A stretch of DNA of 52,914 bases from Polyangiales bacterium (GCA_035687405.1 DASRXR010000355.1:1-52914); one strand, 5' to 3'; counted from the stretch's first letter, positions 4,886-22,932 are shown. Notes: generated by a model not told the origin, from the sequence alone. Numbers and translations: made by a program.

Positions 4886-4888
4886 GAG

Positions 4889-6466: not shown

Positions 6467-6489
6467 CTTGCTAGTTGCTAGCTAGCAAG
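6467..6489. promoter_or_regulatory. Nested palindrome CTTGCTAG-TTGCTAG-CTAGCAAG, containing the perfect 14-bp palindrome TTGCTAGCTAGCAA at 6475-6488; candidate regulator/EBP binding site
   Basis: Read directly from the sequence. It lies in the divergent intergenic region, about 100 nt upstream of the kinase start (6373, minus) and about 250 nt upstream of the -24/-12-like element at 6736. Confidence 0.4.
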
Positions 6490-6735
6490 TGGGAACCAGC
6501 TTAGCTCGCGACTTGTTCCCTGCAACGGCGCGAATTCTGCAAGGACTGCGACGCTTAGTCGCTTCGAAGAAACGCGGCAGTTCCAGTTTTGCAACTATGA
6601 CGCGCGGTTCCAGCACGGAGTGTGCACGGATCGCGCGTCAAATATCTCACCGCAGCGGTGGCGCCGCGTTCAATTCTTTTACGCCGCTGGTAGCAGCACG
6701 CTGGATTTCAGCGTGTGTCTACGGCTCCTGCGTTT

Positions 6736-6751
6736 AGGAACGAAGCTTGCT
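6736..6751 (+). promoter_or_regulatory. Candidate sigma-54 (-24/-12) promoter for the RND efflux operon
   Basis: AGGAACGAAGCTTGCT compares with the consensus TGGCACG-N4-TTGCW. GG (6737-6738) and GC (6749-6750) have the correct 10-nt spacing. It sits 100 nt upstream of the ATG at 6851, and an NtrC-type activator is encoded divergently. Confidence 0.4.
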
Positions 6752-6850
6752 CTCCGGGCAGCTCGTGATCGCTTTGGAAGTTTCAATTTGTTTCCGCCGC
6801 CAGCTCGTGGCTGCGCATGATCTCACCCGTTCGGCAGCGAGACCCGAGCG

Positions 6851-8110
6851 ATGAACGCACGTTCGGTGTGTTTCGGATTCGGCATCGCGCTTGCGACCTT
6901 GCCGCTGAGGGCGGCAGGTCAGTCGGACGGTGCGGTCGTGCTCTCGCTCGAGGAAGCGCAGTCGCGTGCGGCTCGACTTGCTCCGGAAGCCCGCCTAGCG
7001 GCCGGTCGGATCAAGGAGGCCGCCGCGACCCGGGTCGGTGCGGGTGTCATCCTGCCGGTCAATCCCTCGGTCTCTTTCGACGCTCGGCCTGGCCTCGATC
7101 GGAATACGCGAGGCGAGGTCGGTGTTGCTGGTGGGCTCGACGTCACCTTCGAGGTGGGCGGCGGGCCGGGCGCGCGCGAGCGTGAAGCGGACGCGCGCAC
7201 ACGTTCGGCCACCGCGGAGGGTGGCATTGCGCAGCTCGAAGCTCGCCTCGCGGCAGAGCAGGCGTACGTCGCGGAACGCATTGCAGCGCTGCGCATTGCG
7301 CACGCGAAAGAAGCGATCGAGCTCGGCGAACGCGTGCTCGCAGCGGCGCTCGAACGCCTGAACGCGGGTGCCGGCAGCGACATCGACGTGAGCTCCGCGA
7401 AGTCGGAACTCGCGGAGTTTCGCGCGGAGCTGCATGCGGCCGAAGCGGAGCGCCGCCAGAGTGAGATGGAGTTGCGCTACCTCGTCGCGATTCCGGTCGC
7501 GGCGCCGCTGCAGCTGTCGACCGCGATCGAACAACCGATTGCGATCGCGCCGATCGAGTCGCTCGTGAAGCGCTCGCGCGAGCAGCTGCCCGACCTCGCG
7601 GCGATTCGCGCCCGGCTCGGGCTTCTCGCCGCCGCCGACAATCGCCTGAAGACGGAAGCGTTCCCGAAGCTGGGTGCACGTCTCGGCGTCGATGCGTCCC
7701 CCGCGTCGCCCGTGTATGGAATCGCCGGCTTGTCGGTCGAGCTTCCGTTCGCGCAGCGCAACCAAGGTCCGCGCGCTGTCGTCGCTGCCGAGCGCGAGAC
7801 CGAGCTCGATCGCTTCGACTTCACCGCCGGCCGGCTCGACCTGGCGTTGCGCGCGATTCACGGCGCGTACGAGGCGCACCGCGAAGAACTCGGCGTGCTC
7901 ACGCAGGCTGGTTTACCCGCCGCAGAAGAACATCTGCGTTTGGTCGAGACGGGCTGGCGTGCCGGTCGGTTCGACATCTTCCGACTGACTACTGCAGCGC
8001 AGAGTCTCGTGCGCATGAAAGCCGCGCGCGTCAGCGTGCTCGAAAGAATTTGGCGACAGCGAATGTTGCTCGAACGTTGGACTGGAGGATCGATCGATGA
8101 CCGCTCATGA
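6851..8110 (+). CDS. Outer-membrane efflux factor (TolC/CzcC family)
   Basis: The signal peptide is MNARSVCFGFGIALATLPLRAAG. The protein is a long Ala/Glu/Arg-rich coiled-coil type typical of OMF proteins. It is the first gene of a three-gene efflux operon and overlaps the next gene by 14 nt. Confidence 0.8.
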   Translation: MNARSVCFGFGIALATLPLRAAGQSDGAVVLSLEEAQSRAARLAPEARLAAGRIKEAAATRVGAGVILPVNPSVSFDARPGLDRNTRGEVGVAGGLDVTFEVGGGPGAREREADARTRSATAEGGIAQLEARLAAEQAYVAERIAALRIAHAKEAIELGERVLAAALERLNAGAGSDIDVSSAKSELAEFRAELHAAEAERRQSEMELRYLVAIPVAAPLQLSTAIEQPIAIAPIESLVKRSREQLPDLAAIRARLGLLAAADNRLKTEAFPKLGARLGVDASPASPVYGIAGLSVELPFAQRNQGPRAVVAAERETELDRFDFTAGRLDLALRAIHGAYEAHREELGVLTQAGLPAAEEHLRLVETGWRAGRFDIFRLTTAAQSLVRMKAARVSVLERIWRQRMLLERWTGGSIDDRS

Positions 8111-9308
8111 TCAAACTACATCACCCGAGGAGCCCGGCAAAGGCTCGGCTCAGAGCGCACGTGCGCGCGTCGTGTTCTCGCTGCTCGGAGCGGCGGCGAT
8201 CGTTTTGTTCGGTTGGGTGTTCGTGCGCTCGGACGAAGCGCAGCCCGCCCGCGCCGCCGAGCCGAAAGCCGGCAACGACGCACCGGTTCTCGATGGCGAG
8301 CTGATTCGTTTTTCCGACGCGTTCGGAAAGCGCGCCGGCATCACGACCGAGGCGGTGACGCCGTCCGAGCTCTCGCCGTTCGTGACCGTCGGCGGAACGC
8401 TGACTCACGATCCGCGGCATCGCGCTGCGGTCGGCGCGCGCATTCAAGGTCGCGTGCGGCGCGTGTTCAAGTACCTCGGCGACGAGGTGAAGCGCGGCGA
8501 CACGCTGATCGAGATCGAAAGCGCAGAGCTCGGTCGAGCCGAAGCGGCAGTGCTCGCCGCGCGCGCGAAGGAAAAAGCGGTCGAGGCCGACATGAAACGT
8601 GAACGTCACCTCGCGGAGCAACGCGTCACAGCGCAGCGCGACGCCGAGTTCGCACAAGCCACCTACGAGGCCGCCCGCGCCGAACGCGTCGCGGCTGAGC
8701 GCGCCGTCGAAGCCCTCGGCGGCACGCTGGCCGACGATTTCGGCTTGTTGGTGTTGCGCAGTCCGATCGCCGGGCGGGTCGTCGCGTCGAGCGCAGCGCT
8801 CGGCCAAACCGTCGACCCGACCCAAACGTTGTTCGAGGTTGCCGAGCTGAGCACGCTGTGGGTCGAGCTGCACGTGTTCGAGCGCGATCTGAACGGTGTC
8901 CATCGCGGCAACGACGTGGCGATCACGACGCGTGGCGCGCACGACAAAGTCATCGCGGGCAAAGTCGACCACGTCGGCGAGATCATCGACGTGGACACGC
9001 GCACGGCGCCGATCCGCGTCGTCGTCGCAAACGAGAAGCGCGAGCTGCGCGCCGGCCAGTCCGTCGTCGCGCGCATCGACACCAGCGCCGCCGCACAAAA
9101 GGCGTTGACGATTCCGCGCGCGGCGGTCACGCGCATCGACGGCAAGTCGATGGTGTTCGTGATGCACGACAAGAACACGGTCGAGCCGCGCTCGGTCATG
9201 ACCGGTCCCGAAGATGCCGAGCGCATCGCCGTTCACGAAGGTTTACGCGAGAACGATCGCATCGTCCTCGGCGGCATGTTCGCGCTGAAATCCGAAATCT
9301 TCCGCTGA
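8097..9308 (+). CDS. Efflux RND periplasmic adaptor (membrane fusion protein, HlyD/CzcB family)
   Basis: It has an N-terminal TM (VVFSLLGAAAIVLFGWVF). GDEVKRGDTLIEIESAELG is the lipoyl-like hairpin. It also has a coiled coil and C-terminal beta-barrel motifs. Confidence 0.85.
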   Translation: MTAHDQTTSPEEPGKGSAQSARARVVFSLLGAAAIVLFGWVFVRSDEAQPARAAEPKAGNDAPVLDGELIRFSDAFGKRAGITTEAVTPSELSPFVTVGGTLTHDPRHRAAVGARIQGRVRRVFKYLGDEVKRGDTLIEIESAELGRAEAAVLAARAKEKAVEADMKRERHLAEQRVTAQRDAEFAQATYEAARAERVAAERAVEALGGTLADDFGLLVLRSPIAGRVVASSAALGQTVDPTQTLFEVAELSTLWVELHVFERDLNGVHRGNDVAITTRGAHDKVIAGKVDHVGEIIDVDTRTAPIRVVVANEKRELRAGQSVVARIDTSAAAQKALTIPRAAVTRIDGKSMVFVMHDKNTVEPRSVMTGPEDAERIAVHEGLRENDRIVLGGMFALKSEIFR

Positions 9309-9335
9309 AGACTCCGCTTGCGATCGCTTTAAATC

Positions 9336-12300
9336 ATGCTCGAAAGAATCGTAGTAGCCTCCATTCAGGCGCGCGGCGCGGTCGTCGCTCTGCTCTTCAT
9401 GTTGATCGCCGCCGGTGGCTTCGCGGCAGCGCATCTGCCGATCGACGCGATGCCGGACGTCTCGACCGTGCAAGTCTCGGTGCTCACGCGCACCGGTGGC
9501 TTGTCTGCGGTCGAGGCGGAGAACGCGGTGTCGATCCCGATCGAAAACGCGCTGAACGGCGTGCCCGGGGCGATCGAGATTCGAAGCATGGCGGACAGTG
9601 GCGTCACATCGGTCACGGTCGTGTTCAGCGACGACACCGACCCCTGGGCTGCGCGGCAGCTCGTGCTCGAACGCCTGCGCGGAATCGAAGACTTGCTTCC
9701 AAACGGCGCATCGACGCCCGAGCTCGCGCCGATTTCGAGCGGTCTCGGCGAGATCTACACGTTCGTCGTGCGGTCGAACCACCACACGCCGATGCAGCTG
9801 CGCACGTTGCTCGACTGGGAGATCGTGCCGAAGCTGCGCAGCGTCGCCGGCGTGATCGAAGTCAACACGCAAGGCGGCGATCTCAAGCAGTACCACGTGC
9901 TCGTGGATCGCGATCGCCTCGGCGCCCAAGGCATCACGCTCAGCCAAGTCGTCGACGCGCTCGAGGCCGCGAACAAGAACGCGGGCGGCGGCTACATGGA
10001 CCGCGGCTCCGAGTCGTACGTGGTGCGCGGCGAGGGATTGTTGAAGGACGAGCAGGACATCGCCGATGTCGCGCTTCGAGCGGAGCCGGGCAAGTCGCCG
10101 GTCCTCGTCCGGCACGTCGCCGAAGTGAAAATCGGTTCGGCGTTGCGCTACGGCACGGTGACGCGGGCGGGGGAGGGTGAAGCCGTCAGCGGCACGGTGA
10201 TGATGCTGCTCGGGTCGAACAGCCGCGAGGTCGTGACGGCGGTCGGTTCGAAGGTCGAAGAGATCCGGAAGTCGTTGCCGACCGGCGTGAGCATCGACGT
10301 GATCTACGATCGCTCGGACTTCGTCGGGCGCACCTTGCAGACAGTCATGACGAACCTCGCGGAAGGCATCGCGATCGTGATGGTCGTGCTGGCGTTGTTC
10401 CTCGGGACGTTGCGCGGCGCGCTCGCGGTCGTCCTCGGGATTCCCGCCGCGATGTCGGTCGCGCTGATCGGAATGCACGCGTTCGGGGTGACGGGTGACT
10501 TGATGTCGCTCGGTGCGATCGACTTCGGGTTTCTAGTCGATGGTCCGATCGTTGTGCTCGAAGCGGTGATCGCAGCGACGACGGGTCGCAAGCTGATCGG
10601 CGCTGCGCGCGCCCACGCGTATTCCGACGTGGCGAAGCTCGCGGCTCGCCCAGTCGGCTTTGCAGTCGCGATCATCATGCTCGTGTACGTGCCGCTGCTG
10701 ACGCTCGAGGGTGTCGAGGGCAAGATGTTCCGCCCGATGGCGCTCACGATGGCACTCGCGTTGTTCGGCGCGCTGGTCTACGCGATCGTGTTCTTTCCAG
10801 CCGTCCTCACGTTCCTCGTGCCGCCGAAGGCTGCGCACGGCCCGGCTTGGATGGATCGCCTCGCGACGCTGTACACGAACTTCATGCCGCGCATCATTCA
10901 GTTCCGTTATCTGTTCATTGCGGTGGCGGTCGTCGCGCTGGGCGTGACCGGGTTTCTGTTCGCGCGCAGCGGTGCCGAGTTCGTGCCGCGGATCTTCGAG
11001 GGTGATGCCGTCGTGACGATCCGGCGTGCGCCGAGCATCTCGCTCGCGCAAGCGCGCGAGCTCGACTTGGCAGCGCAAAGGGTCCTGCACACCTTTCCCG
11101 AAGTCGTGACGACGCTCGGCCTGAACGGACGGCCGGAAGTCGCAGTCGACGTGGTCGGTGCGGACAATACCGACGTGTTCGTGCGCTTGAAGCCGCTGAA
11201 GTCGTGGACGAGTGCAGACAGTTTCGATGGGCTCTCGGAAGCGTTCAAAAACGCGATCGAGAGCAAAGTGCCGGGCACTTACGTGTCGGTGTCGCAGCCG
11301 ATCGAGGACCGCACGAACGAGCTCATCAGTGGCTCGCGCGCGGATGTGTCGATTCAGATCTACGGCACGGAACTCGAAGACCTCGCGCGGCTCGCGGCGG
11401 AGACCAAAGAGATCGTGCGCGGGATCAGCGGCACGGGTGATGTCCGCGTCGAGCGCATCCTCGGGCAGCCCGTGCTCAGCGCGGTTGCGGACCGGCAGCG
11501 GATGGCTGCATACGGCGTGCGGTTGGACGACGCACTCACCGTGCTCGCTTCGACGCGGGAAGGCGTCGACGTGGGACAGATCTACGAAGGCCCGCGCCGG
11601 TTCGACTTGCGCGTGTTGCAGCCACCGTCGGAGCCGCGCCCGGAAGCGCTGGCAGAGCTCCGGGTGGAAACCATGACCGGAGAGACCGTGCGGCTCGGCG
11701 ACGTCCTGAAGGTCACGGAGGGCGAAGGCCCGGCGTCGGTGCGGCGCGTCAATCGCGAACGCGCCGTTCGCGTCGACGTGAACTTGCGCGGCCGCGACCT
11801 GCTGTCGTGGGTGCAGGAGGCACAAGGCACGGTCGGGCAGAAGCTGCCGCTCGCGGCCGGCTATCACTTGGAGTGGGGCGGCCAGTTCGAAAACTTCAAC
11901 CGTGCCCAAGCGCGCTTGAAGGTCGTGATCCCGGTCGTGGTCGCGATCATCTTCGGCATGTTGTTGATCATGTTTCGCAACGTGCGCTTTGCAGCCGCCG
12001 TGTTTGCGACGGTCCCGCTGTCGCTCGCGGGCGGAATGTTGGGCTTACTGCTCCGTGACATGCCGTTTTCGCTGTCTGCCGCTGTCGGCTTCATCGCGCT
12101 CGGCGGCATCGCCGTGCTCAACGGTGTCGTGATGGGGCAAGAAGTGCAGCACTTGCTGTCGCGGGGTGTACCGCTGGCGCGGGCGGTCTCGCAGGGCTCG
12201 AGTGGTGTGATTCGCGCGGTGCTCACGACCACGGCGGTGGCTGCGCTCGGCTTTTTGCCTATGGCTTTGTCGAGCGGTGCAGGTTCCGAGGTCCAGCGGC

Positions 12301-12470
12301 CGCTCGCGACTGCGGTGGCGGTCGGCATCGCACTCGGCGCGGTCACGACGTTGTTCGTCTTGCCCGGTCTATTCACGATCTTCCTGCGCGGCTATTCGGT
12401 GCGGCCTGCCACCCCGGATGCGGTCGAAGCCGAGCCCGCTGCAGCGAAACATACTGCTGTCGTGACCTAG
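9336..12470 (+). CDS. Heavy-metal-efflux RND transporter permease (CzcA/CusA family)
   Basis: 1044 aa. The N-terminus IDAMPDVSTVQVSVLT is like CzcA/CusA. The TM4 proton-relay signature AIDFGFLVDGPIVVLEA has the D, D and E of the HME motif DFG-DGA-VEN conserved. Confidence 0.9.
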   Translation: MLERIVVASIQARGAVVALLFMLIAAGGFAAAHLPIDAMPDVSTVQVSVLTRTGGLSAVEAENAVSIPIENALNGVPGAIEIRSMADSGVTSVTVVFSDDTDPWAARQLVLERLRGIEDLLPNGASTPELAPISSGLGEIYTFVVRSNHHTPMQLRTLLDWEIVPKLRSVAGVIEVNTQGGDLKQYHVLVDRDRLGAQGITLSQVVDALEAANKNAGGGYMDRGSESYVVRGEGLLKDEQDIADVALRAEPGKSPVLVRHVAEVKIGSALRYGTVTRAGEGEAVSGTVMMLLGSNSREVVTAVGSKVEEIRKSLPTGVSIDVIYDRSDFVGRTLQTVMTNLAEGIAIVMVVLALFLGTLRGALAVVLGIPAAMSVALIGMHAFGVTGDLMSLGAIDFGFLVDGPIVVLEAVIAATTGRKLIGAARAHAYSDVAKLAARPVGFAVAIIMLVYVPLLTLEGVEGKMFRPMALTMALALFGALVYAIVFFPAVLTFLVPPKAAHGPAWMDRLATLYTNFMPRIIQFRYLFIAVAVVALGVTGFLFARSGAEFVPRIFEGDAVVTIRRAPSISLAQARELDLAAQRVLHTFPEVVTTLGLNGRPEVAVDVVGADNTDVFVRLKPLKSWTSADSFDGLSEAFKNAIESKVPGTYVSVSQPIEDRTNELISGSRADVSIQIYGTELEDLARLAAETKEIVRGISGTGDVRVERILGQPVLSAVADRQRMAAYGVRLDDALTVLASTREGVDVGQIYEGPRRFDLRVLQPPSEPRPEALAELRVETMTGETVRLGDVLKVTEGEGPASVRRVNRERAVRVDVNLRGRDLLSWVQEAQGTVGQKLPLAAGYHLEWGGQFENFNRAQARLKVVIPVVVAIIFGMLLIMFRNVRFAAAVFATVPLSLAGGMLGLLLRDMPFSLSAAVGFIALGGIAVLNGVVMGQEVQHLLSRGVPLARAVSQGSSGVIRAVLTTTAVAALGFLPMALSSGAGSEVQRPLATAVAVGIALGAVTTLFVLPGLFTIFLRGYSVRPATPDAVEAEPAAAKHTAVVT

Positions 12471-15400
12471 CGCTGGCCTGACTCGAGCGCACGTGTGCGC
12501 AGGAACGGATGCGTGCTCTGAACCGCCGCTTCGGCTTTTGGAGCGGCGGGTGCGATCTCCAACCAGCAGCGCGTGCGCTGAAACGGATAACTCGGCAGCG
12601 CGATCTTGGGGCGTTCGAAACCGGCGTGGAACGCGTTGAAATCGAGCGCCGAACCTTGCTCGTAGAGCGCAGCTACGTTTTGCAGAAGTGCGAGGTAGCT
12701 GCAGCCTTCGGCGGCAACTTGGACCTGTCGTTCTGCGTCGAGTTGCTCCAGCGCAGCCAGGTGGCGCTCCGCGTCTGCCGGCGCGTACAAGTGCGCCAGC
12801 CAGTATTTTTGGTCGAGCGTCTCCCGAGTCGTGACGACGCGCCCGTGGCTTGCAGCCAGGAGCGGCAGGGACGGTGGCGTGTAGTCGACCGCCGCGAGCG
12901 CGGTCTTGAACTGGTGCAGGGTCTGACGCACGCGCGCGCCGGGTACGAGCGACCGGAGCAGCAGCTCGCGCCGCGCGGCGAGCCGGAGCGCGTCGTGCCA
13001 TCCGAGCGCACCTGCCGCACAGGCGGCTGCAAACTCGCCGGTCCCGCTGCCCGCGATGATGGCCGGCGCGACTCGCCAATACTCGAGCAAAGTGTGCAAC
13101 GCGTACTGCAGAACCACGCCGCTCGTCTGCGGGAACTCGAGCCTCGGCCCTGATTCGTTGGACAGCAGCTGCGGCAGCGGATCAGTATCGAGCACGGCCT
13201 CGACGATCCGCGCTCCGCGCTCGAGTGCGCGCTGGAACATCGGCTCCGCTTCGTAGAGCTCGCGAGCGACTCCGGCACGTGGCACGCGCTCATTGAACAC
13301 GAACACGATGCGCGGCTCGCGGCGGTGCGCGGTCAGTGTGGCTGTGCTCGCGATGCGCGCGAGCCCCGCCCGCATCTCCGAAGGGTCACTGGCGACGATC
13401 GCCGCGCGGTAGGCGAAGTGATCGCGACCCGCGTTCATCGTGAAGCAGACCGACGACAGCGTCTCCTCGGAGATCCGCGGGAGGAGGTCGGCGGCGAGCT
13501 CACGCAGGGCCTCGGGATCTTTCGCGGAGAGCGCGAGTAGCTCGTAGCGGCGCGTGATGCTCGGCGCTCGAGCGATGCGCTCGGAGCTCTCACGCAACAC
13601 GACGTGTGCGTTGGTGCCTCCGAAGCCGAATGCACTGATCCCGGCAAAGCGCGTGCGCGCCGAGCGTGGCCACGGCACAGCGCGCGCCGGGATCGCGAGC
13701 CCGAGTGAGTCGAGGTCGAGGTGCGGGGAGACGTTCTTCAGGTGTAGATGTGCCGGCAGAGATTCGTGGCTGAGCGCGAGGGCAGTCTTGATCACGCCCG
13801 CGATCCCCGACGCCGCTTCGAGGTGCCCGAGATTCGTCTTCACCGAGCCGACGTAGCAGCGCGAACCGCCCGTGCGCGCGAACACTCGGCCGAGCGCGCC
13901 GAGCTCGACAGCATCCGACACCGGCGTTCCGACGCCGTGCGCTTCGATGTAGTCGAGCTGATCTGGACCGACGTTTGCGGAGTGCAATGCGGCTCGCAGC
14001 AGCCGCTCTTGTGCGGGCAGGCTCGGCGCCATCAATCCGTTCGAGCAGCCGTCGTGATTGGTCGCAGAGCCTTCGACGCGCGCGTAGATCCGATCGGCCG
14101 CAGCTTCGGCATCGGAGAGGCGCTTCAGCACGATGACCCCGCAGCCTTCGCTGCGCACGAACCCGTCTGCGCTCGCGTCGAATGTCTTGCAACGGCCATC
14201 CTTTGCGAGCGCGCGAGACTTGGCGAAAAAAACACCCGGCTCGGGCGCAAGCACCGCGTTGACTCCGCCCACGATCGCGACACTGCACTCGCGCCGGCGT
14301 AGACTTTCGCTCGCGAGGTGGAGCGCGACCAGCGAGGACGAACACGCGGTGTCGATCGTCATGCTCGGTCCGCGCAGGTCGAGCGTGTAAGAGACGCGAT
14401 TGGCGACGACACTCTTCGCGTGGCCCGTCCCGTAGTCCGCATCGATCAGCGACAGCTGACCGGCGTGCAAGAGCGCGTAGTCGTTCGTGCACACGCCCGC
14501 AAACACGCCCGCGTCCGTCTCGCGCAAAGTCGAAGCTGGAATGCCGGCGTCTTCGAGCGCGGCCCACGTCAGCTCGAGAAACAAACGCTGCTGCGGGTCC
14601 ATCCGGGCGGCTTCGCGCCTCGAGACGCCGAAAAACAGAGGATCGAAGCGATCGATGTCTTCGATGAAGCCACCGAACTGCGCGCCACTCGCCGCGAGCT
14701 CCGGGCGGTCCGGCGGCAACTCACCGATGGCATCGCGCCCAGACGCCAGAAGATCCCAAAAGCCTTCGAGGTTTGGAGCCCCGGGGAAGCGGCAACTCAT
14801 GCCGATGATCGCGATCGAGTCTCGGTTGTCGTGTGGCTCCGGACGTTCGCGCCGGTCGCTGCGCGCGCGAGGCGGAGGGGTCGCGCCGGCGGAGAGTGCG
14901 GTCGCTAGCGCGGCGATCGTCGGCTGTTCGTAACTGAGGGTGGACGGAAGCGCCTCGTCCAAAAACTCTTCGAGCGCCGCGGTCAGCTCGGCCGCGTGCA
15001 GCGAGTCGATGCCGTAGCGCGCGAGCGGCGCGTGCTCGTCGATCTCGCTCGGTTCCAGCTTTGCGAGTTGTGCGACTCGGGACCGGAGGAATTGCGTGAT
15101 CGCGTCGTGGCGAGCGCCGCCGACGGGTTGCGTACGCGTCACGGCGCGACCGCGGTCCCCGTTCGAGATCTCGCCGTTGAGCGCAGACAGCTCTTGGGTC
15201 TTTACACTCGCGTCCCAGCGCGCAACCACGTCCAGTCCGCCGTCGAGGTACGCGCGCTTCATGGTCTGCCGCTGCACCTTGCCGCTCGCGGTCCGGGCAA
15301 CGGTGCCGCGCTTCACGATTGCGCAGGCGTGCAGCGACAACCCGTGCAGTTGGCGGACGGTCTCGAGCACTTCGGAGATGAGAGTCTCGGCGTCGGCGTG

Positions 15401-16870
15401 CTGGCGGTGATCGATCTCCTGGACGACGACGACGCGCTCTTGGCCGTCGACCTCGACTGAAAACGCGGCGCCGGGCTCGGCCCGAAGTGCGGGATGGATC
15501 GCTTGCACCGTCCGCTCGATGTCGTGCGGGTAGTGGTTCTGACCGCGGATGACAATCAGATCGCTTAGTCGCCCCGTCACGAACAAGGCCCCGTTCAGGA
15601 CGAAACCGAGGTCGCCAGTGCGAAGGAACGGCCCTTCGTCCAAACCGGCGATACGCGCCTGAAAGCGTTCGCGCGTCGCTTCGGGTCGCTTCCAGTAGCC
15701 GGTTGCGACGCTGGCACCTGACACCCAGATCTCGCCGATCTGACTGTCGCCGAGTTGGATCTGACTGTCAGGGTCTACGATCCGTACGCGGGTCGCCGTC
15801 GCGGACTGGCCACAACTGACGACAGACACGACGCGACCGCCGGCAGTCCCGCGCCGCGCCTGATGGTGTTCGAGGGCGGTCGCGTCGATCGTTTCCACGA
15901 CGGGCAGTGTTTCCGGTGAGCCGCCTGCGACGAACAGCGTAGCTTCGGCGAGGCCATAACAAGGAAAGAAGGCGCGGCGCTCGAAACCACTCGAAGCGAA
16001 CGCGGTCGCGAACGCGTCGAGCGTGTCCGGATGAATCGGTTCCGCGCCGTTACACACGACGCGGAGACTCGACAGGTCGAGCCCGGCGCGTTGCGCCTCC
16101 GGGATGCGACGCACGCATAGATCGAAAGCGAAGTTCGGAGCCATCGTCACGCTGGCACGCCGCTCGCTGATTTCGGCGAGCCAGCGCCGCGGCCGGCGAA
16201 TGAACGACTCGGGCGGCAAGATGTACGTCGCGACGCCGGCGAACAACGGCCAGAAGATGCCGCCGAGCAGCCCCATGTCATGGTACGGCGGTAACCAGGT
16301 TACGAGAACGTCGCTCGAGCTGAGTTGGGTAGCGTCCGTGATCGCGACCAAGTTCGCGGTCAGCTGCCGCAAGCTCACCGCAACGCCCTTCGGCGTAGAC
16401 GTCGAGCCCGATGTGTATTGAAGCAGACACACGGCGTCGGGATCGAGCGACCATGTGAGCTGCGGTGCCTCGAGTGCGCCGGCGAGCAGTGTCTCGAGCC
16501 GAAGCGTTTCGACTTGCAACACTTCACTCGTCGCGCCGCCTACGGTCAGCGCGCAACGCACGCCCGCGTCCGACAGGATCGATGCGATGCGCTGATTCGC
16601 GCGCGACAGGCGCAGCGACGTCGCAGGATAGGCCGGCACCATGATCGCTCCGGCATACACGCAGCCGAGCAGGCATGAGACGTAGTCCAAACCCGCGGGC
16701 GCTGCGACGAGCACCGGCTGCCCAGCTAGGCCACGCGCACGTAGCGCGTGCGCAACGCAGAGTGCTCTCGTCCGCAACACGTGCAGCGGGCAACCATCGA
16801 AAGTCAGCGTGTCGGGCGCCGACAGGAAGCGCCCTTCCAATACGTCGATCAACGTCAGCGGGTGAGTCAT
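12467..16870 (-). CDS. Polyketide synthase with lipid-loading module: FAAL - ACP - KS - degenerate AT - DH N-terminal stub
   Basis: This is track ORF 12467..16939. I prefer the ATG at 16870 (MTHPLTLIDVLEG), giving 1467 aa. Domain motifs are listed in the domain features below. The stop shares the tetranucleotide CTAG (12467-12470) with the convergent czcA-like stop. Confidence 0.9.
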   Translation of the reverse strand: MTHPLTLIDVLEGRFLSAPDTLTFDGCPLHVLRTRALCVAHALRARGLAGQPVLVAAPAGLDYVSCLLGCVYAGAIMVPAYPATSLRLSRANQRIASILSDAGVRCALTVGGATSEVLQVETLRLETLLAGALEAPQLTWSLDPDAVCLLQYTSGSTSTPKGVAVSLRQLTANLVAITDATQLSSSDVLVTWLPPYHDMGLLGGIFWPLFAGVATYILPPESFIRRPRRWLAEISERRASVTMAPNFAFDLCVRRIPEAQRAGLDLSSLRVVCNGAEPIHPDTLDAFATAFASSGFERRAFFPCYGLAEATLFVAGGSPETLPVVETIDATALEHHQARRGTAGGRVVSVVSCGQSATATRVRIVDPDSQIQLGDSQIGEIWVSGASVATGYWKRPEATRERFQARIAGLDEGPFLRTGDLGFVLNGALFVTGRLSDLIVIRGQNHYPHDIERTVQAIHPALRAEPGAAFSVEVDGQERVVVVQEIDHRQHADAETLISEVLETVRQLHGLSLHACAIVKRGTVARTASGKVQRQTMKRAYLDGGLDVVARWDASVKTQELSALNGEISNGDRGRAVTRTQPVGGARHDAITQFLRSRVAQLAKLEPSEIDEHAPLARYGIDSLHAAELTAALEEFLDEALPSTLSYEQPTIAALATALSAGATPPPRARSDRRERPEPHDNRDSIAIIGMSCRFPGAPNLEGFWDLLASGRDAIGELPPDRPELAASGAQFGGFIEDIDRFDPLFFGVSRREAARMDPQQRLFLELTWAALEDAGIPASTLRETDAGVFAGVCTNDYALLHAGQLSLIDADYGTGHAKSVVANRVSYTLDLRGPSMTIDTACSSSLVALHLASESLRRRECSVAIVGGVNAVLAPEPGVFFAKSRALAKDGRCKTFDASADGFVRSEGCGVIVLKRLSDAEAAADRIYARVEGSATNHDGCSNGLMAPSLPAQERLLRAALHSANVGPDQLDYIEAHGVGTPVSDAVELGALGRVFARTGGSRCYVGSVKTNLGHLEAASGIAGVIKTALALSHESLPAHLHLKNVSPHLDLDSLGLAIPARAVPWPRSARTRFAGISAFGFGGTNAHVVLRESSERIARAPSITRRYELLALSAKDPEALRELAADLLPRISEETLSSVCFTMNAGRDHFAYRAAIVASDPSEMRAGLARIASTATLTAHRREPRIVFVFNERVPRAGVARELYEAEPMFQRALERGARIVEAVLDTDPLPQLLSNESGPRLEFPQTSGVVLQYALHTLLEYWRVAPAIIAGSGTGEFAAACAAGALGWHDALRLAARRELLLRSLVPGARVRQTLHQFKTALAAVDYTPPSLPLLAASHGRVVTTRETLDQKYWLAHLYAPADAERHLAALEQLDAERQVQVAAEGCSYLALLQNVAALYEQGSALDFNAFHAGFERPKIALPSYPFQRTRCWLEIAPAAPKAEAAVQSTHPFLRTRALESGQR
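12470..12517 (-). other. N-terminal stub of a PKS dehydratase domain (HPFL motif) at the extreme C-terminus
   Basis: The protein ends ...QSTHPFLRTRALESGQR*. HP[LF]L-x-R is the canonical start of PKS DH domains. Confidence 0.55.
12575..13315 (-). other. Degenerate, shortened acyltransferase-like domain (active-site Ser lost)
   Basis: FVFNERVPRAGV replaces F-x-F-x-GQG-x-Q-x-x-GM. GSGTGEFAAACAAGAL (GSGTG encoded at 13037-13051) replaces GHS-x-GE. AASH replaces HAFH/YASH. The post-AT linker SYPFQRTRCWL is retained. Confidence 0.75.
13586..14818 (-). other. Ketosynthase domain with an intact Cys-His-His triad
   Basis: IAIIGMSCRFPGA, DTACSSSLVALHLA (Cys codon at about 14342-14344), EAHGVGTPVSD, KTNLGHLEAASG and FGFGGTNAHVVL. 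Confidence 0.9.
14885..15109 (-). other. Acyl carrier protein domain (ACP1)
   Basis: LARYGIDSLHAAELTAALEEF. The phosphopantetheine Ser in DSL is encoded at about 15002-15004. Confidence 0.85.
15206..16870 (-). other. Fatty acyl-AMP ligase (FAAL) domain
   Basis: LLQYTSGSTSTPKGVAVS, WLPPYHDMGLLGGIF, MAPNFAFDLC, FPCYGLAEATLFV, GEIWVSGASVATGYWKRPEAT, LRTGDLGFVLNGALFVTGRLSDLIVIRGQNHYPHDIE and RTASGKVQR together form a FadD32/FAAL-type motif set. Confidence 0.85.
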
Positions 16871-17065
16871 TGAGTTACAGCGCAAGCGAAGACGAACCCG
16901 TCCGAGCGCGACCTGATGGCGCACGGCAGGCGAGTGCAAAGTGTGGCGTGTCAGCGCACCAGCAGGGGCGAGCGCAATTACGCCATAGCCAACAAGTGTC
17001 TACATGCCTAGCCGGCTACGACCGGTCAAGCGAAATGCGTCGGGATGCGTTGGAATAAACATTCG

Positions 17066-17095
17066 CGTGCGCGTTCGTTCGTTCGAACGCGCACG
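17066..17095. promoter_or_regulatory. Perfect 12-bp inverted repeat CGTGCGCGTTCG-N6-CGAACGCGCACG in the divergent PKS/NRPS promoter region
   Basis: Read directly from the sequence. The arms are at 17066-17077 and 17084-17095 with spacer TTCGTT. It lies about 195 nt from the PKS ATG and about 170 nt from the NRPS ATG. Confidence 0.45.
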
Positions 17096-17138
17096 TCGTG
17101 TCGAGGACGAGCCGAACATCCATCGATCGAGACATTGC

Positions 17139-17227
17139 AACGCGGCTTAGCAACGCGCCTTGCGTCACATTGATAGTTACATCGGTGTGTCCGCGACCAA
17201 TGCGGCTTGCGACCGAACGCGGCTTAG
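17139..17227 (+). repeat. Three copies of a 12-mer upstream of the NRPS gene: AACGCGGCTTAG (17139-17150), AATGCGGCTTGC (17199-17210), AACGCGGCTTAG (17216-17227)
   Basis: Read directly from the sequence. Two copies are exact and one matches 10/12. All are in the same orientation and lie within 130 nt of the ATG at 17267. Confidence 0.5.
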
Positions 17228-17266
17228 TCGTAAGGGTTCAATCCAATCCGGTTAGTTGGTGTCGCA

Positions 17267-18052
17267 ATGGCTCATGCGTTCGAGTTGTCCGCAGAGATAG
17301 TCGAATCATTGTCTAGTCCGCGATTTGACTGTCAGACGGAGTTGGGGTGGGGAGGGTTGCTCGAGTGGTCGATCGCGGTGCGTCGCGTGACGTCGAACGA
17401 GAACGCAGAGTCGGACGCCGCCTATCCAATCCGGCTAGGGCGCGTCACGTGGCACGCGGCGGAGCCGACGGCGGGCGAGCCGCTGTATTGCCGGACGCAG
17501 CCAGGCGGGCCGTTGCTCGTAACCACCGGACCGCGCAGCGGTGGGCGGTTGCTGCTGAGCGCGACATCGGCTGAAGCAGAGCCGGTCGCGCGTTTACCTT
17601 CGGTCGCATTCCCAATCGGCGAGCTCGGCCAACGCGTCGGCGAAGGACAGTTCTACGCGGAGCTCACCGCGCGCGGGTTTGAAATTGAAACAAACGCGCG
17701 CGTTGTCGAGTACGCATGCTTCAGGCAAGACGCCGCGGTCGCGGTGCTCGCCGCGCCGTCGAATCTCGAAGCCGGGTTCATCCTCGGTCCGAGCGCGCTC
17801 GACGCCGCGCTTTACGTTGCGTTCGCCTACGCGCAGCGCGCGATCGGAGAAGCCAGCGAGCCGCCGCGGTCGGGCCCTTTGCCCGCGATCGAGGATGTGG
17901 TCGTAGTCGCTTCGGGAGTTCCGCGGACGATCATCGTTCGTGCCAGACCTCGCACGACTCGAACGCAGCTCGACGTAAGCCTGCTGGACGTCCACGGCAT
18001 GGAGCTCGCCAAACTCGAAGGTGTCACGTTCGAGAGTCGCGCGGCCGAAGCC
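17267..18052 (+). other. PKS dehydratase-like double-hotdog region, catalytically degenerate
   Basis: AFELSAEI aligns to the [FW]E-x-x-LS that follows HPLL. RFDCQTELGWGGLLEW sits where L-x-DH-x-V-x-G...PG-x-x-x-LE is expected, with His replaced by Cys. FYAELTARGFEIETNA aligns to YGP-x-F. GPSALDAALYV aligns to HP-ALLD-x-x-x-Q, with the Asp retained. Confidence 0.55.
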
Positions 18053-21000
18053 ACGCAGCGGACTCTCAATCTCACATGCGTCTTCATCGAGATCGTTCGC
18101 GCGTGTCTGCCGGCAGTCGACTTCGAGCCGACCACCTCGCTGCCCGGACTCGGCGCAAGCTCGATCGACCTCGTGCGGATCGGCAGCCTCGCGAGCGAGT
18201 GGTTGGGCTGGATGCCGCCGCTCGCGGACTTCTTGCGAACGCCGACTGTAGCGGGCCTCGTACAATTGTATCTCACTCGCGACGCGCGTCCGGGTGGGCG
18301 CGGGACACTGGACATTCTCAGCGCGACAGAACGGCAGCTCTGGTTTCTCGAGCAGGCCACCCACGCAGCCGGTGCCTATAACGAGGGCGTCGCGTGGCGG
18401 ATCCGCGGCGCGCTCTCGATCGACGCGCTCGAACGTGCGCTCGTGCACGTACAGCAATGTCATCCGGCGCTCCGCAGCTACTTTCCTGCTCCGGACGGCG
18501 TCCCAGAGCGCAACCTCGACTGGCGACAGTGCGAGCTCGAGCTGATCGAGACACCGGCGGACATTCGAAGCCAACCCGAGCTACTCGATGACTACGTCGC
18601 GGATCAAATCTGCCGCCCGTTCGATCTCGAGCACGCACCACCGTTTCGCTGCGCGCTGCTGTTCCACGGAGCCGGTGATTCGACAATCGTGCTCAGCGCG
18701 CATCATCTCATATGCGACGCCTGGTCATTTGCGCACGTCGTCGTTCCGGAGTTGCGCGCGGCGTATCGGTCGCTGCTCGAGTCGCCTGAGCTGCAGCTGC
18801 CGGTCGCGAGCGTCGAGAGCGAGCTCGCCCGTCACGAGCTCGACCCAGCCGAACGAAAGCGGTCCGAGGAGCACTTCCGCCGGACGCTCCGCGAGTTGCC
18901 GCACGTGCTCGACTTTCCGTTCGACCACCCGCGACCCGCCGTGCAGCTGCATCGCGGCGCGTGTGTACACCGGCCGCTCACGGCCGCGCGCTGGAGCGCA
19001 GTGAAGGCGCTCGCGCGCGAGCTCGGGCAATCGCCGTTCGTCGTGTGCCTCGCTGCGCACGAGATCTTGCTCCAGCGGTACACGCGCAGCGATGCGTTTT
19101 GTGTCGGTGTTCCGGTCTCGCTGAGGCGCGACTCCGAGGACGCGCGAAAGGTCGGCTGTTTCGTCAATCTCAGCGTGGTTCGCGCACGGGTCGATTCGGC
19201 GCATACGTTCGACGCGCACTGCGCGCGTGTCCGAGAGGACTTGATCGACACCCTCCAGTTCGATCGACTCGCGCTCGGTGAAATCGTTCGCGCGGTTGCA
19301 CCGGTCCGATCGCTCAGCCACACGCCGCTCGTGCAAGCCGTCTTCGGTTACCGCGAGCTCGCGGGCGCAACACTGGAGCTTCCGGGTGTGATCGCCACGC
19401 CGCTCTTCGTGCACAACCGTCGCGCGAAGTTCGACCTCACGCTCTCCATCGACGACTGCGGGAACGAAGCGGAGCTTAGCCTCGAGTACGCGTCGGACTT
19501 GCTCGAACGACCCAGCGCGGAGAGTCTGCTCGATCACTTCGAAGCCCTGCTCGACGAGTTGGCACACAATCCGCGTGTGCGGATCGGATCGCTTCAGCTA
19601 GCGAATCGTCGCGAGCAAAAACAAATCGCGAGCTACGAGCACGGCCCGGTTCGCACAGTGCCGCCGAGCGAGCTGGGCCTAGCCACGCTGGCACGCTCCC
19701 CCGATGACGTGATCGTTCTGCGCACAAGCTCGCGCGAGTGGAGTGCCGCAGCGCTTCGCCAGTTGACGTCACGGATCGCCACCGCGCTTCAGTGCGCGGA
19801 CGTTCGACCGGGCGAGCTCGTCGTCGTCTGCGCACCGCGAAGTGCAGAATGGGTGGCAGCTGTGCTCGCGATCCTGGAGGTCGGAGCCGCGTACGTCCCG
19901 CTCGATCCGCGACAGCCTGACGCGCGCATTGCGCACGGCATCGCCCGCTCGGGTGCGCGGCTCGTGATCACCCTCGATGCTGCGTTCGTGCCCGCGCCTG
20001 ACTCCACGCTGCGGACTCTGGAGCTGCGAGGGCTCGCGAGCTCGACGCCAGTGCAAACGCGCGCGATCCCGCCTGCCGATCCGCACCATCCGGTCTACGC
20101 GATCCTCACTTCCGGTTCGACCGGCGCGCCTCGCCTCGCTGCGGTCGCGCACGCGGGTTTTTCGAACCTCTTGTCGTTCTACTCGCAGCTGCTGTCGCTC
20201 ACAGCGGCGGACCGCGTCCTGCTTGCGACCTCGGTCGGCTTCGACCTCACGCAAAAGAATGTATTCGCTGCGCTACTCGCGGGCGCCCAGCTCGTCATCG
20301 ACGACTCGGACTCCTTCGACCCCGAGCGACTCGCGGAGCTGATCGAGCAGCGCGGTATCACCGTGATCAACTGCACCCCCACACTCGCGTATGCACTCGT
20401 CGCAAGCGCAGCCGCACTCGACTTCCGCAAGCTTCGCTCGGTGCGTGTGCTCGTCCTCGGCGGCGAACCCATCGACGAGAAACAGCTGCGCGCCTGGACG
20501 GCGCACCCGAGTTGCTCTGCGCGCATTCTGAACTCCTACGGCCCGACGGAGTGCAGCGACGTGGTCGCGACCAGCGAAGTGCAGGCCGGCGTTCCGTGTG
20601 GCACGAACCTCGGACGCCCAATTCCCAACGCGCGCTGTCGCGTCGTCGACTGCTCAGGTGCAGTCGCAGGCATCGGCGTTCCGGGAGAACTGTGTCTCGC
20701 CGGCACGCCGCTCGGCCTCGGATACGTCGGCGATCCCGCGGCCACGGGGACGAAGTTCGTTCGCGAGCACGGGACTCGCTTCTACCGTACGGGCGACCTG
20801 GTTCGCTGGAATCACGCCGGCGAGCTGCAGTTCCTCGGTCGGCTCGACGCCCAAGTGAAGATTCGTGGCTACCGCATCGAGCTCGCTGAGATCGAAGCGG
20901 CGCTCGAACTGCGACCTGAGGTCAGCGACGCAGTCGTGATCAGTCGGCCCGATCCGCGCGGTCAGCCGATGCTCGTCGGCTACGTCGTGCTCACAGCTTC

Positions 21001-21484
21001 AGTCGAGGGCGCCGATCGCGCACTCGAACGCTTGCTGCGTCGCGACCTCGCGCGGAACCTCCCGAGCTACATGATCCCGCGGGCGATCGTGACGATCGAT
21101 CGCCTGCCTCGCACCGCCAGCGGCAAGCTCGATCGGAACGCGCTGCTCGGACGCGCTTGGAATCCTGAACCGCCGAGCCTTCAGGATCGCGAACCGAGCG
21201 ATCCGATCCTCTCGCGCGTTCGCGCGGCATTTTGTGACGTGCTCGGTGTGGCCGGGATTGCGAGCGATGCGGACTTCTTCGAGCACGGAGGCCATTCGCT
21301 TGCGGCGGTCGCCCTCGTCGCGCAGCTCGAAGACGAGCTCGGCTTGCGCCTGCGTCCGGCCGCCGTCTTCGAGCGGCCGGTCCTTCGCGATTTCGCGTCG
21401 CATTTAGCGGAGTTACTCGATCAGGGACCGGACAGCGACGGCCACGCGATCAGCGCACCCCGGACTACGTTGAACGCGATCTGA
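17267..21484 (+). CDS. Hybrid PKS/NRPS protein: DH-like domain (without its N-terminal HPLL segment) - carrier - C - A - PCP; no TE/R domain
   Basis: Track ORF of 1405 aa. Motifs are given in the domain features below. Confidence 0.9.
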   Translation: MAHAFELSAEIVESLSSPRFDCQTELGWGGLLEWSIAVRRVTSNENAESDAAYPIRLGRVTWHAAEPTAGEPLYCRTQPGGPLLVTTGPRSGGRLLLSATSAEAEPVARLPSVAFPIGELGQRVGEGQFYAELTARGFEIETNARVVEYACFRQDAAVAVLAAPSNLEAGFILGPSALDAALYVAFAYAQRAIGEASEPPRSGPLPAIEDVVVVASGVPRTIIVRARPRTTRTQLDVSLLDVHGMELAKLEGVTFESRAAEATQRTLNLTCVFIEIVRACLPAVDFEPTTSLPGLGASSIDLVRIGSLASEWLGWMPPLADFLRTPTVAGLVQLYLTRDARPGGRGTLDILSATERQLWFLEQATHAAGAYNEGVAWRIRGALSIDALERALVHVQQCHPALRSYFPAPDGVPERNLDWRQCELELIETPADIRSQPELLDDYVADQICRPFDLEHAPPFRCALLFHGAGDSTIVLSAHHLICDAWSFAHVVVPELRAAYRSLLESPELQLPVASVESELARHELDPAERKRSEEHFRRTLRELPHVLDFPFDHPRPAVQLHRGACVHRPLTAARWSAVKALARELGQSPFVVCLAAHEILLQRYTRSDAFCVGVPVSLRRDSEDARKVGCFVNLSVVRARVDSAHTFDAHCARVREDLIDTLQFDRLALGEIVRAVAPVRSLSHTPLVQAVFGYRELAGATLELPGVIATPLFVHNRRAKFDLTLSIDDCGNEAELSLEYASDLLERPSAESLLDHFEALLDELAHNPRVRIGSLQLANRREQKQIASYEHGPVRTVPPSELGLATLARSPDDVIVLRTSSREWSAAALRQLTSRIATALQCADVRPGELVVVCAPRSAEWVAAVLAILEVGAAYVPLDPRQPDARIAHGIARSGARLVITLDAAFVPAPDSTLRTLELRGLASSTPVQTRAIPPADPHHPVYAILTSGSTGAPRLAAVAHAGFSNLLSFYSQLLSLTAADRVLLATSVGFDLTQKNVFAALLAGAQLVIDDSDSFDPERLAELIEQRGITVINCTPTLAYALVASAAALDFRKLRSVRVLVLGGEPIDEKQLRAWTAHPSCSARILNSYGPTECSDVVATSEVQAGVPCGTNLGRPIPNARCRVVDCSGAVAGIGVPGELCLAGTPLGLGYVGDPAATGTKFVREHGTRFYRTGDLVRWNHAGELQFLGRLDAQVKIRGYRIELAEIEAALELRPEVSDAVVISRPDPRGQPMLVGYVVLTASVEGADRALERLLRRDLARNLPSYMIPRAIVTIDRLPRTASGKLDRNALLGRAWNPEPPSLQDREPSDPILSRVRAAFCDVLGVAGIASDADFFEHGGHSLAAVALVAQLEDELGLRLRPAAVFERPVLRDFASHLAELLDQGPDSDGHAISAPRTTLNAI
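18074..18271 (+). other. Carrier protein domain (ACP2/T)
   Basis: LPGLGASSIDLVRIGSLASEWL. The candidate phosphopantetheine Ser codon is at about 18161-18163 (residue 299). Confidence 0.7.
18314..19600 (+). other. NRPS condensation domain
   Basis: LSATERQLWFLEQ, AYNEGVAWRIRGALSIDALERAL, and SAHHLICDAWSF, which is the HHxxxD motif at 18701-18718. Confidence 0.85.
19640..21140 (+). other. NRPS adenylation domain (substrate not assigned)
   Basis: LEVGAAYVPLDP, YAILTSGSTGAPRLA (an A3 variant with PRL instead of PKG), FDLTQKNVF, NSYGPTE, GELCLAGTPLGLGY, YRTGDLVRW, GRLDAQVKIRGYRIELAEIE and LPRTASGKLDR. Confidence 0.88.
21205..21405 (+). other. Peptidyl carrier protein domain (terminal)
   Basis: DADFFEHGGHSLAAVALVAQLEDELG. 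The protein stops about 25 aa later with no thioesterase, reductase or terminal C domain. Confidence 0.85.
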
Positions 21485-21729
21485 ATCTCCTGCCGCCACC
21501 AGCTGCAGTCGTTGATCGCTTTCGGCGCCCGCCTGTCCGAAAAAGCTGCTTTCAACTCGACAGAACGGCCATGGCGGGTGAGCACGCTGCGTTCGTATGC
21601 TTTTTTGGCCCCGTATTCACGGGCGTTTTCGCGGGCTTGATTGTTTCGTCTACTAGCGACCGATGCACCGCGTGCTAGCGTGCGCAAGATCCTCACGCGC
21701 GATTGCGCGCGGAGAAACAGGCGTTATCC

Positions 21730-22932
21730 ATGACGAAGCTTGAACGATGTTTGTGTGGCTGCTTGTTGATGGCCGCCGTCAGCGGCTGCGGTGCGGACCA
21801 GGACACTAGCGGCCGTACTGGAGCTACAGGCGGTCCGAGAGGCGGCTTCGGCACGGCGGGCGGTAGCAGCCCATCGAAGCCCGGCTCGTTTGGAGACGGC
21901 GTCGCGGGAGGTCTAGGCCTCGCTCCGATCACGCCTTCCGACATGCGGCCATCGACGATCTCCGATCCGAACACCTGTGCGGCGGCTTCGGTGCGCGCGT
22001 CGCGCGTCACGCCCACCGTCTACTTGGTGGTCGATGGCAGCGGGAGCATGAACGCCGTCTTCGGCGGCATGGGCACGCGCTGGCAGGTATTGCGTGAAGC
22101 CCTCGTCGGCACGAACGGAGTCGTTCCGAAGCTCGAGAGCGTCGTGAACTTCGGCATGACGATCTACAGCAACAACGACCCGATGATGTGCCCGGCAGTC
22201 AAAGAGGTTAAGCCCGCGCTGAAGAACTATCAGGCGATCATGGCTGGCTATCCGGCGATGGAAACCGGTGGCGGCACTCCGACCGGCGAAGCGCTGCAGA
22301 AGGTCGTGGACTCGCTGCCAGACTTCAACACCGTCGCGCCCGACCAGGTCGTGAATGCGCCGCCGATCATCGTGCTCGCTACCGACGGTGAGCCGAACGG
22401 CTGCGCGGCCGGTGTCATTTGCAACTGGGTCGACTGGGCCAACTGCTTGGGCCAGCTCCTCGGTTCGCTCGCGAACGCAGCGCCGACGTACGACTCCACG
22501 CTGGCAGCAGTGCGCGCCGCGAAGGCCAAGGGCATCGCGGTGTGGGTCGTCAGCCTTGCGGATGGTCTGAACGCGATTCCGGATCTGCAGAAGACCGCGA
22601 ACATCGGTGCGGGTCTCGCCGACAACGCGAGTCCGGGTGCGATGATTTACTCGCCGAAAAACCCCGACGAGCTGACTGGCACGCTCACCAAGCTGATCGG
22701 CGATGTCGTCTCGTGCGACGTCTCGCTCGAAGGCTCACTCGTCGTGGCGCGCGCCTGCGAAGGCACGGTCACGATGAACGGCGTTCCGCTCAACTGCAAC
22801 AACGATGAAGGTTGGAAGCCCGTCGACGAGAAGCACATCCAGCTTCAAGGCAGTGCTTGCACGAAGTTCAAGTCGGATCCGTCGATCGTCTTGGACGCGA
22901 GCTTCCCGTGCGACGTCGTCGCGCCGCAGTGA
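21730..22932 (+). CDS. Secreted von Willebrand factor A (vWA) domain lipoprotein with a Cys-rich C-terminal region
   Basis: I prefer the ATG at 21730, giving MTKLERCLCGCLLMAAVSGC with lipobox AVSGC. The MIDAS motif is VYLVVDGSGSM, with GGGTPTGEAL and LATDGEPNGC. The C-terminal ~90 aa contain several Cys (CDVSLEG...ACEG...LNCNNDEGW...SACTKF...FPCD). Confidence 0.8.
   Translation: MTKLERCLCGCLLMAAVSGCGADQDTSGRTGATGGPRGGFGTAGGSSPSKPGSFGDGVAGGLGLAPITPSDMRPSTISDPNTCAAASVRASRVTPTVYLVVDGSGSMNAVFGGMGTRWQVLREALVGTNGVVPKLESVVNFGMTIYSNNDPMMCPAVKEVKPALKNYQAIMAGYPAMETGGGTPTGEALQKVVDSLPDFNTVAPDQVVNAPPIIVLATDGEPNGCAAGVICNWVDWANCLGQLLGSLANAAPTYDSTLAAVRAAKAKGIAVWVVSLADGLNAIPDLQKTANIGAGLADNASPGAMIYSPKNPDELTGTLTKLIGDVVSCDVSLEGSLVVARACEGTVTMNGVPLNCNNDEGWKPVDEKHIQLQGSACTKFKSDPSIVLDASFPCDVVAPQ

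Follow-up and report, generated by a model that had tools for sequence, protein, structure and literature searches.

The divergent PKS and NRPS genes

We analysed a 52,914-nt stretch of DNA from a Polyangiales bacterium (GCA_035687405.1 DASRXR010000355.1:1-52914), referred to here as the window, in which a polyketide synthase (PKS) gene on the minus strand and a nonribosomal peptide synthetase (NRPS) gene on the plus strand lie head to head. The dehydratase (DH) domain of a single elongation module appears to be divided between their products. An earlier note on this DNA had proposed that a single inversion broke one megasynthase here; its alternative was a DH that is split by nature and acts as a docking interface. 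Results of our analysis indicate that the split is very probably ancient and natural, and not an artefact of inversion.

The PKS subunit gene (12467–16870, minus strand) was defined by its open reading frame (ORF), translation and Pfam domains; it encodes 1467 residues and has its stop codon at 12467–12469. Pfam assigned to it a fatty acyl-AMP ligase (FAAL, 15227–16777), a first acyl carrier protein (ACP1, 14894–15091), a ketosynthase (KS, 13739–14821) in which the Cys (DTACSSS) and both His (EAHGVGT and KTNLGH) are present, and a linker between the KS and the acyltransferase (AT), located at 13349–13726 and matched by PF16197, PF22336 and PF22621. The AT-like domain that follows (12599–13276) has a partial and weak match to PF00698 (43 bits, profile positions 12–159 of 319). 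In this domain GSGTGE (13034–13051) replaces GHSxG and the acyl-accepting Ser is gone. The same Ser-to-Gly change is common to those members of the PKS clade in which the motif was located (approximately 30, among P0014–P0049), and the sister clade has GHSVGEY. The AT of the PKS subunit is thus predicted to be dead. Since the cis AT has no Ser, loading of the second ACP (ACP2) would fall to an AT acting in trans, which the module probably needs. The C-terminal tail of approximately 43 residues (12470–12598) reads ...LPSYPFQRTRCWLEIAPAAPKAEAAVQSTHPFLRTRALESGQR up to the stop and comprises the post-AT linker motif YPFQRTRCW (12563–12589), a variable spacer and HPFL (12500–12511). Ten more residues separate HPFL from the stop, in line with the earlier note. 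An exact look-up of the two window proteins found neither on record; the ENA entry P0014 is the same protein as the window PKS, differing only in its start.

The NRPS subunit gene (17267–21484, plus strand, Pfam) encodes 1405 residues, and its orthologue P0011 has the same architecture. It begins with a DH-like double-hotdog region (17267–18061; weak PF14765 match, custom profile and hhalign), followed by four Pfam-assigned domains: ACP2 (18107–18268, with its Ser in LGASSIDL), a condensation (C) domain (18317–19627, with HHLICDA), an adenylation (A) domain (19691–21127) and a peptidyl carrier protein (PCP, 21215–21406). Core motifs are intact in the ACP, C, A and PCP domains, as they are in the KS and ACP of the PKS. 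The ORF opens at 17267 with MAHAFELSAEIVES (longer N-terminal stretch, MAHAFELSAEIV) and shows the FELS element at 17279–17290, which the earlier note had described as the [FW]E-x-x-LS element; HPLL is absent from this region. An in-frame TAA lies at 17231–17233, 36 nt ahead of the ATG, and no start codon separates the two; thus there is neither a longer N-terminus nor a hidden HPLL upstream. The A-domain code that we derived by hand (about DLKNVGSDVK) is not known to match any specificity code and we claim no substrate.

At the active site of the DH-like head, HxxxGxxxxP is replaced by SPRFDCQTELG (17315–17347), with Pro, Cys and Gly aligned to the His, Gly and Pro, respectively. The YGP motif is also gone, with FYAELTARGFEIE from 17651 in its place (EIETNAR for YGP). 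The Asp of LDAAL is retained in GPSALDAALY (17786–17815) and the Q/H position of DxxxQ/H is occupied by Y. With both HxxxGxxxxP and YGP absent, the domain is predicted to be catalytically dead. No ketoreductase (KR) was found in the window pair or in the orthologous pair of locus L162, and a DH in the window module would therefore have no substrate. The L162 NRPS head (L162 4431–9770; 51%-identity orthologue) keeps a near-canonical LDHSRVCGRPVLS with the His present, so that the loss of the His would be specific to the subclade of the window.

Complementary parts of one DH-like unit

The PKS tail and the NRPS head were compared with a canonical profile hidden Markov model built from 17 segments, each covering the post-AT linker and DH, drawn from the fetched loci. 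The tail matched profile columns 1–42, the concatenated tail and head matched without a gap through the junction up to column 60, and the second half of the head matched columns 177–324 (E 1e-10). In a global hhalign alignment, for which the window protein, P0001, P0011 and P0012 served as the head family, NRPS residues 1–264 were placed on canonical columns 50–330 with a probability of 98%. Canonical columns 1–49 hold the linker, HPLL and the segment directly after it. As the tail occupies the first columns and the head columns 50–330, the two represent complementary, non-overlapping parts of one DH-like unit. In an independent phmmer search of PDB, the concatenation matched 7zma, a contiguous KS-DH, with HPFL on HPFL (E 0.01). 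The earlier note had described the joined termini as a normally spaced DH N-terminus; from HPFL to FE there are 14 residues in the concatenation vs. 12 in canonical DHs.

Pfam was less informative. PF14765 (PS-DH) matched NRPS residues 119–263 only, with 17–22 bits and a cutoff of 23.7, and PF21089 (PKS_DH_N) matched neither the NRPS head nor the concatenation. Joining the tail to the head left the PS-DH score and range as they were (22.2 vs. 21.8 bits, identical residues), so that Pfam is unable to settle the join that the custom profile reads without a gap. A complete DH start within the second protein was not seen, the head having no HPLL of its own.

The tail was also compared with other PKS termini in the fetched loci. 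Ten other proteins stop within 70 residues of the post-AT motif; in eight of these the end comes 4–19 residues after YPFxRxRCW, and they have no HPLL. Within the clade, all PKSs with a visible C-terminus (36/36) stop 9–48 residues past HP[L/F/Y][L/I/V/F/A]; the H and P are invariant in every one of them, down to approximately 45% identity, and the spacer between CW and HP is free in both length and composition. The HPFL tail is more than a product of chance, given the invariant H-P after a variable linker. HP[F/L][L/I], with which every PKS DH domain opens, stands out as the one conserved element of this short tail.

Gene layout and termini in relatives

The head-to-head PKS/NRPS pair was found in all six independent assemblies in which gene context was available, with the two genes 230–396 bp apart. 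In the metagenome contig L001 the NRPS head is 81% identical at the amino acid level and a FAAL N-terminus lies on the opposite strand. The contig of P0011 carries an NRPS of 1422 residues with a 52% identical head, and 385 bp upstream of it lies a large gene in divergent orientation; next come a gene for 401 residues and one on the minus strand, like the order in the window. Searches with the whole PKS gave the P0015 contig (79% identity), L161 (60%), L162/L163 (51%, a Polyangiales metagenome-assembled genome, MAG) and L164 (46–47%). All four have an NRPS composed of PS-DH, PP, C, A and PCP domains, divergent from and 230–395 bp apart from the PKS, and in all four a Ser/Thr-kinase-AAA_16 gene lies beyond the NRPS. 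The NRPS heads that could be read (L001, P0011, L161, L162 and L164) begin 4–26 residues before F-E-L or F-x-E-L and have no HPLL. Head starts read ...VHRFELS in P0001, ...IREFELS in P0011, ...TARFELG in L161, MPNPLFELD in L162 and ...APSFIELE in L164.

Downstream of the PKS stop the relatives differ: a thiolase, a convergent gene of unknown identity, GATase_4, FecCD or czcA can be found there, which indicates that the PKS terminus is a property of the gene and not of a junction. Down to approximately 45% identity, the clade contained neither fused nor tandem members.

Further searches returned few heads. An exhaustive HMMER search with the DH-like head gave only four matches and a scan of genome_contigs and metagenome_contigs with the head alignment gave nothing; given the four matches, the head family is rare or very divergent. 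In two contig scans with an alignment of the AT and tail, the Polyangiales MAG was the sole close relative, the remainder being generic ATs of 22–43% identity. In L001 (approximately 1820–1974) similarity to the window NRPS is lost after about residue 445 and a second ORF carries on; this break is a frameshift, due either to a sequencing error or to decay of the contig. The NRPSs of L162 and L164 (L162 4431–9770; L164 4288–9606) have 1772–1779 residues, approximately 370 more than that of the window. The additional L162 sequence was assigned to terminal reductase families (Epimerase and NAD_binding_4); L164 was judged by its length.

These data bear directly on the proposal that a recent single inversion of approximately 12467–17260, a mis-assembly or a phase-variable segment broke one fused gene at this locus. 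The proposal draws on the near-canonical DH N-terminus that the tail and head form when joined, on the presence of fused architectures in distant relatives, and on the CTAG shared by the convergent stops, which we confirmed (czcA TAG at 12468–12470 and the PKS stop). Yet, the divergent layout with the same termini recurs in six independent assemblies with PKSs 46–79% identical, and each of the 36 clade tails stops after HPxL. Both window ORFs are intact and appear to be under purifying selection, and no inverted repeats pairing approximately 12467 with approximately 17260 were found. The register that an inversion was said to restore stems from a freely chosen right boundary (17260) and has no evidential weight. 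The synteny comparison yielded no fused or co-directional orthologues; relatives are divergent, as expected of an ancestral split. We thus concluded that a recent inversion is refuted by the relatives and that mis-assembly and phase variation are excluded by the recurrence of the pair; taken together, such origins are so improbable that they can be set aside in practice. The layout and termini favour instead the naturally split DH, for which docking would be the function.

The apparent junction at 12467–12470 has another explanation. A mixed-strand block (3512–12470, Pfam) abuts the PKS stop; it comprises a sigma-54 response regulator (3512–4885, minus strand), a histidine kinase (4889–6373, minus strand) and czcC/B/A-like RND efflux genes (6851–12470, plus strand). 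This block has no counterpart in L161, L162 or L164. In L161 the order is orf931-homologue, GATase_4, PKS, NRPS, vWA lipoprotein and kinase (69, 84, 60, 51, 67, and 80% identical to the window genes, respectively), with GATase_4 overlapping the PKS 3′ end by 11 bp; the window orthologue of this GATase_4 gene lies at 2460–3467, on the far side of the block. The block appears to be a lineage-specific insertion of approximately 9 kb, or a deletion in the other lineages, and it is not part of the assembly line. Its edge at the PKS stop accounts for the apparent junction, which is therefore real as a block boundary but not as an inversion breakpoint. The czc adjacency is explained by this separate event, which left the PKS tail unaltered: the tails of P0015 and P0016 are equally long and almost identical in sequence.

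Fused and sister architectures

The reading of the pair as one module of the order FAAL-ACP-KS-AT-DH-ACP-C-A-PCP is supported by fused FAAL-ACP-KS-AT-(DH remnant)-ACP-C proteins in Chloroflexi (P0050, P0054 and P0060), in which the PKS part is approximately 43% identical to that of the window. These proteins have an active AT (GHSVGEY), a DH remnant of 90–200 residues and an ACP-C part of approximately 30% identity.

Their existence raises the question of whether an ancient inversion or gene fission in the clade ancestor split a fused module and was then fixed. Such an event is compatible with an ancient natural split, and an inversion that flipped the promoter together with the start of the gene would leave a single promoter region between the halves, which fits the shared intergenic region. 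On the other hand, the clade yielded no fused or tandem member down to approximately 45% identity, and the Chloroflexi proteins, with their short DH remnant and active AT, are not simple unsplit versions of the window pair. Either direction, fusion or fission, is compatible with these data. We therefore regard an ancestral fission or inversion as a possible but rather unlikely route to the split.

PKSs that end within a DH also occur elsewhere. A sister clade of FAAL-ACP-KS-AT proteins (P0051–P0133; 41 of the best 120 matches) from Chloroflexi, cyanobacteria and Archangium stops as soon as the first half of the double hotdog is complete, in a DH that is canonical in other respects (...WTLHATGKIRHS, then the stop). 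In ten fetched loci, mostly from Burkholderia (L012, L013, L015–L017, L075, L096, L102, L134 and L145), a PKS breaks off halfway through its DH, and the next gene encodes a luciferase-like monooxygenase and not a second half.

Selection and the divergent intergenic region

In comparison with L001, dN/dS was 0.45 in the pseudo-DH and 0.24 in the ACP and C domains, with a dS of 0.27 over the 5′ part of the NRPS gene. This indicates that the 5′ part probably evolves under purifying selection, which appears relaxed in the non-catalytic pseudo-DH.

The 396-bp intergenic region (16871–17266) is approximately 92% identical at the nucleotide level to that of L001 over the aligned stretch, despite a dS of about 0.27 in the adjacent gene. 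It contains four copies of an 11-nt direct repeat, CAACGCGGCTT (17138–17225), and a perfect 12-nt inverted repeat (17066–17095). The region is presumed to be a bidirectional promoter/regulatory region, in which the repeats are probably the binding sites of a regulator. An Rfam search of the region gave no match, and a promoter and terminator scan of it gave nothing useful.

A proposal for subunit docking

In the light of these data, the two genes appear to encode subunits of one lipopeptide-type PKS-NRPS assembly line conserved in Polyangiales-like Myxococcota. One elongation module, KS-AT(dead)-DH(dead)-ACP, is spread over two divergently transcribed subunits. To judge from the aligned termini, the break lies just past the HPLL segment of the DH and is conserved throughout a large myxobacterial clade. 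The split is thus likely to be old and kept by selection.

We propose that the HPxL tail is a docking element on the pseudo-DH. It would bind the N-terminally incomplete pseudo-DH in trans and provide its missing first strand. This binding would tether the ACP of the second subunit beside the KS of the first and so restore the contiguous KS-AT-DH-ACP geometry. In the assembled line, the FAAL would place a fatty acid on ACP1, the KS would extend the acyl chain with malonyl-ACP2 (ACP2 being charged by a trans-acting AT), and the C domain would transfer the 3-oxoacyl chain to the PCP-bound amino acid. Divergent transcription from the conserved 396-bp intergenic region would co-regulate both subunits. 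As a whole, this mechanism seems to us somewhat better than an even bet. Its stricter form, in which the dead DH is kept purely as an inter-subunit adaptor and the two proteins come together because each supplies part of a single fold (split-domain complementation), is put forward tentatively, as an idea that falls a little short of even chances.

The tail could instead be the vestigial stub of a truncated DH, with the subunits associating via other surfaces or the ACP reaching the KS by diffusion. PKSs with partial DH ends that lack a complementary partner do exist, in the half-DH clade and in Burkholderia, and AlphaFold returned no confident strand insertion. Yet, a mere stub would hardly keep its H-P invariant in 36/36 proteins down to approximately 45% identity while the preceding spacer varies freely, and in every pair seen the partner domain lacks exactly this element. 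Invariance beside a free spacer, together with the complementary truncation of the partner, argues for function, and we consider the vestigial stub improbable.

Several points nevertheless weigh against the docking proposal. Binding between the tail and the pseudo-DH is something that we infer from the sequences. C-terminal DH fragments without a complementary partner, as in the Burkholderia half-DH PKSs with a monooxygenase gene next to them, mean that such a remnant need not be a docking element. Taken by themselves, the N-terminal 115 residues of the head show no significant likeness to a DH (hhalign, E 0.5). AlphaFold models of the fused junction had a pLDDT of 38 with a 7-row multiple sequence alignment and of 53 with a 37-row one. 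At the junction itself the value was below 50, which leaves strand complementation without structural support. With the better of these low-confidence models (pLDDT 53), Foldseek ranked PKS DH domains first, but at a TM score of only about 0.2. In the deeper clade (P0023–P0049) the tails reach 26–48 residues from the His of HPL[L/I], and many of them bear another conserved motif, SGF[V/A]RK, which may be an extra contact with the partner. A discrete AT was not found among approximately 22 large window ORFs in a non-exhaustive scan against Pfam. The window also has no release domain, as the NRPS ends after the PCP (21407–21484) with neither a thioesterase nor a reductase.

Genes next to the NRPS

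Beside the NRPS, the window encodes a lipoprotein with a vWA-like region and a weak match to the gliding-motility protein CglB (21703–22932), and a Ser/Thr kinase of 1272 residues with an AAA_16 domain (22936–26754). The lipoprotein was matched only in L161, the kinase lies near the NRPS in L161, L162 and L164, and the P0011 contig has genes at both positions. These two genes may regulate the cluster or belong to it. The nearest PKS homologues are labelled Polyangiales and Myxococcales, and this, along with the two genes, suggests that the window comes from a member of the Myxococcota.

Implications and comparison with known systems

For the window, the practical outcome is that no inversion, mis-assembly or phase variation has to be invoked. 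For annotation, it follows that divergent PKS/NRPS pairs with termini "broken" inside a domain should not be called rearrangements or pseudogenes. If split-domain complementation is true, it would be a docking mode undescribed for cis-AT-type PKS/NRPS hybrids and would define a family of 36 or more myxobacterial clusters in which neither the AT nor the DH is active. Subunit junctions decide the success of engineered PKS/NRPS assembly lines; should an HPxL tail of 10–45 residues and a non-catalytic DH suffice, they would make a PKS-to-NRPS connector that is compact, portable and already validated by nature. A literature search found no HPLL-based docking and no characterised cluster of this type, and the organisation of the myxofacycline cluster is unlike that of the window pair.

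The HPLL motif is known to mark a boundary of the DH fold (PMC6697708). Canonical cis-AT modules of the KS-AT-DH-ACP type (CurF/CurK, DEBS DHs) share with the window the order YPFxRxRYW, HPLL, FExxL and hotdog helices, and the window concatenation aligns to them almost without gaps. Here, however, the polypeptide is broken after the HPLL segment, and the His of HxxxGxxxxP, YGP and the Ser of the AT are absent. The fused lipopeptide initiation modules of Chloroflexi have the domain order of the concatenated window pair, but they are single polypeptides with an active AT and a short DH remnant.

The closest parallel is offered by dehydratase docking (DHD) domains, which at the junctions of split KS/DH modules of trans-AT PKSs bind the surface of the downstream DH directly (PMC9113145; PMC11221535). 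An example is the gladiolin GbnD4/GbnD5 junction in a trans-AT PKS (Jenner et al., 2018; summaries in PMC9113145 and PMC11221535). In both cases one subunit of the divided module bears the KS and the other opens with a DH. This downstream DH carries no docking appendage at its N-terminus, the heads described here beginning 4–26 residues before the FEL strand. The upstream C-terminal extension of the DHD systems is the counterpart of the linker that joins KS and DH in cis, and it touches the DH directly (PMC9113145). A further likeness is the probable dependence on a trans AT, as the cis AT of the window is predicted to be non-functional. The differences are also clear. DHD junctions have been described for KSs without a flanking subdomain, whereas the window PKS has the entire KS-AT linker and, after it, an AT-like domain. 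The tail of approximately 43 residues contains a literal HPxL, unlike the GbnD4 DHD sequence (PMC11524581). In addition, the DH of the window pair is predicted to be dead, an NRPS serves as the downstream subunit, transcription is divergent and the binding is proposed from sequence. Split modules and DH-directed docking are thus already known, and the window pair would be a variant of them in a PKS/NRPS hybrid that contains an AT and presumably uses a pseudo-DH as its adaptor. If this holds, the DHD principle would reach from trans-AT PKSs to AT-containing modules.

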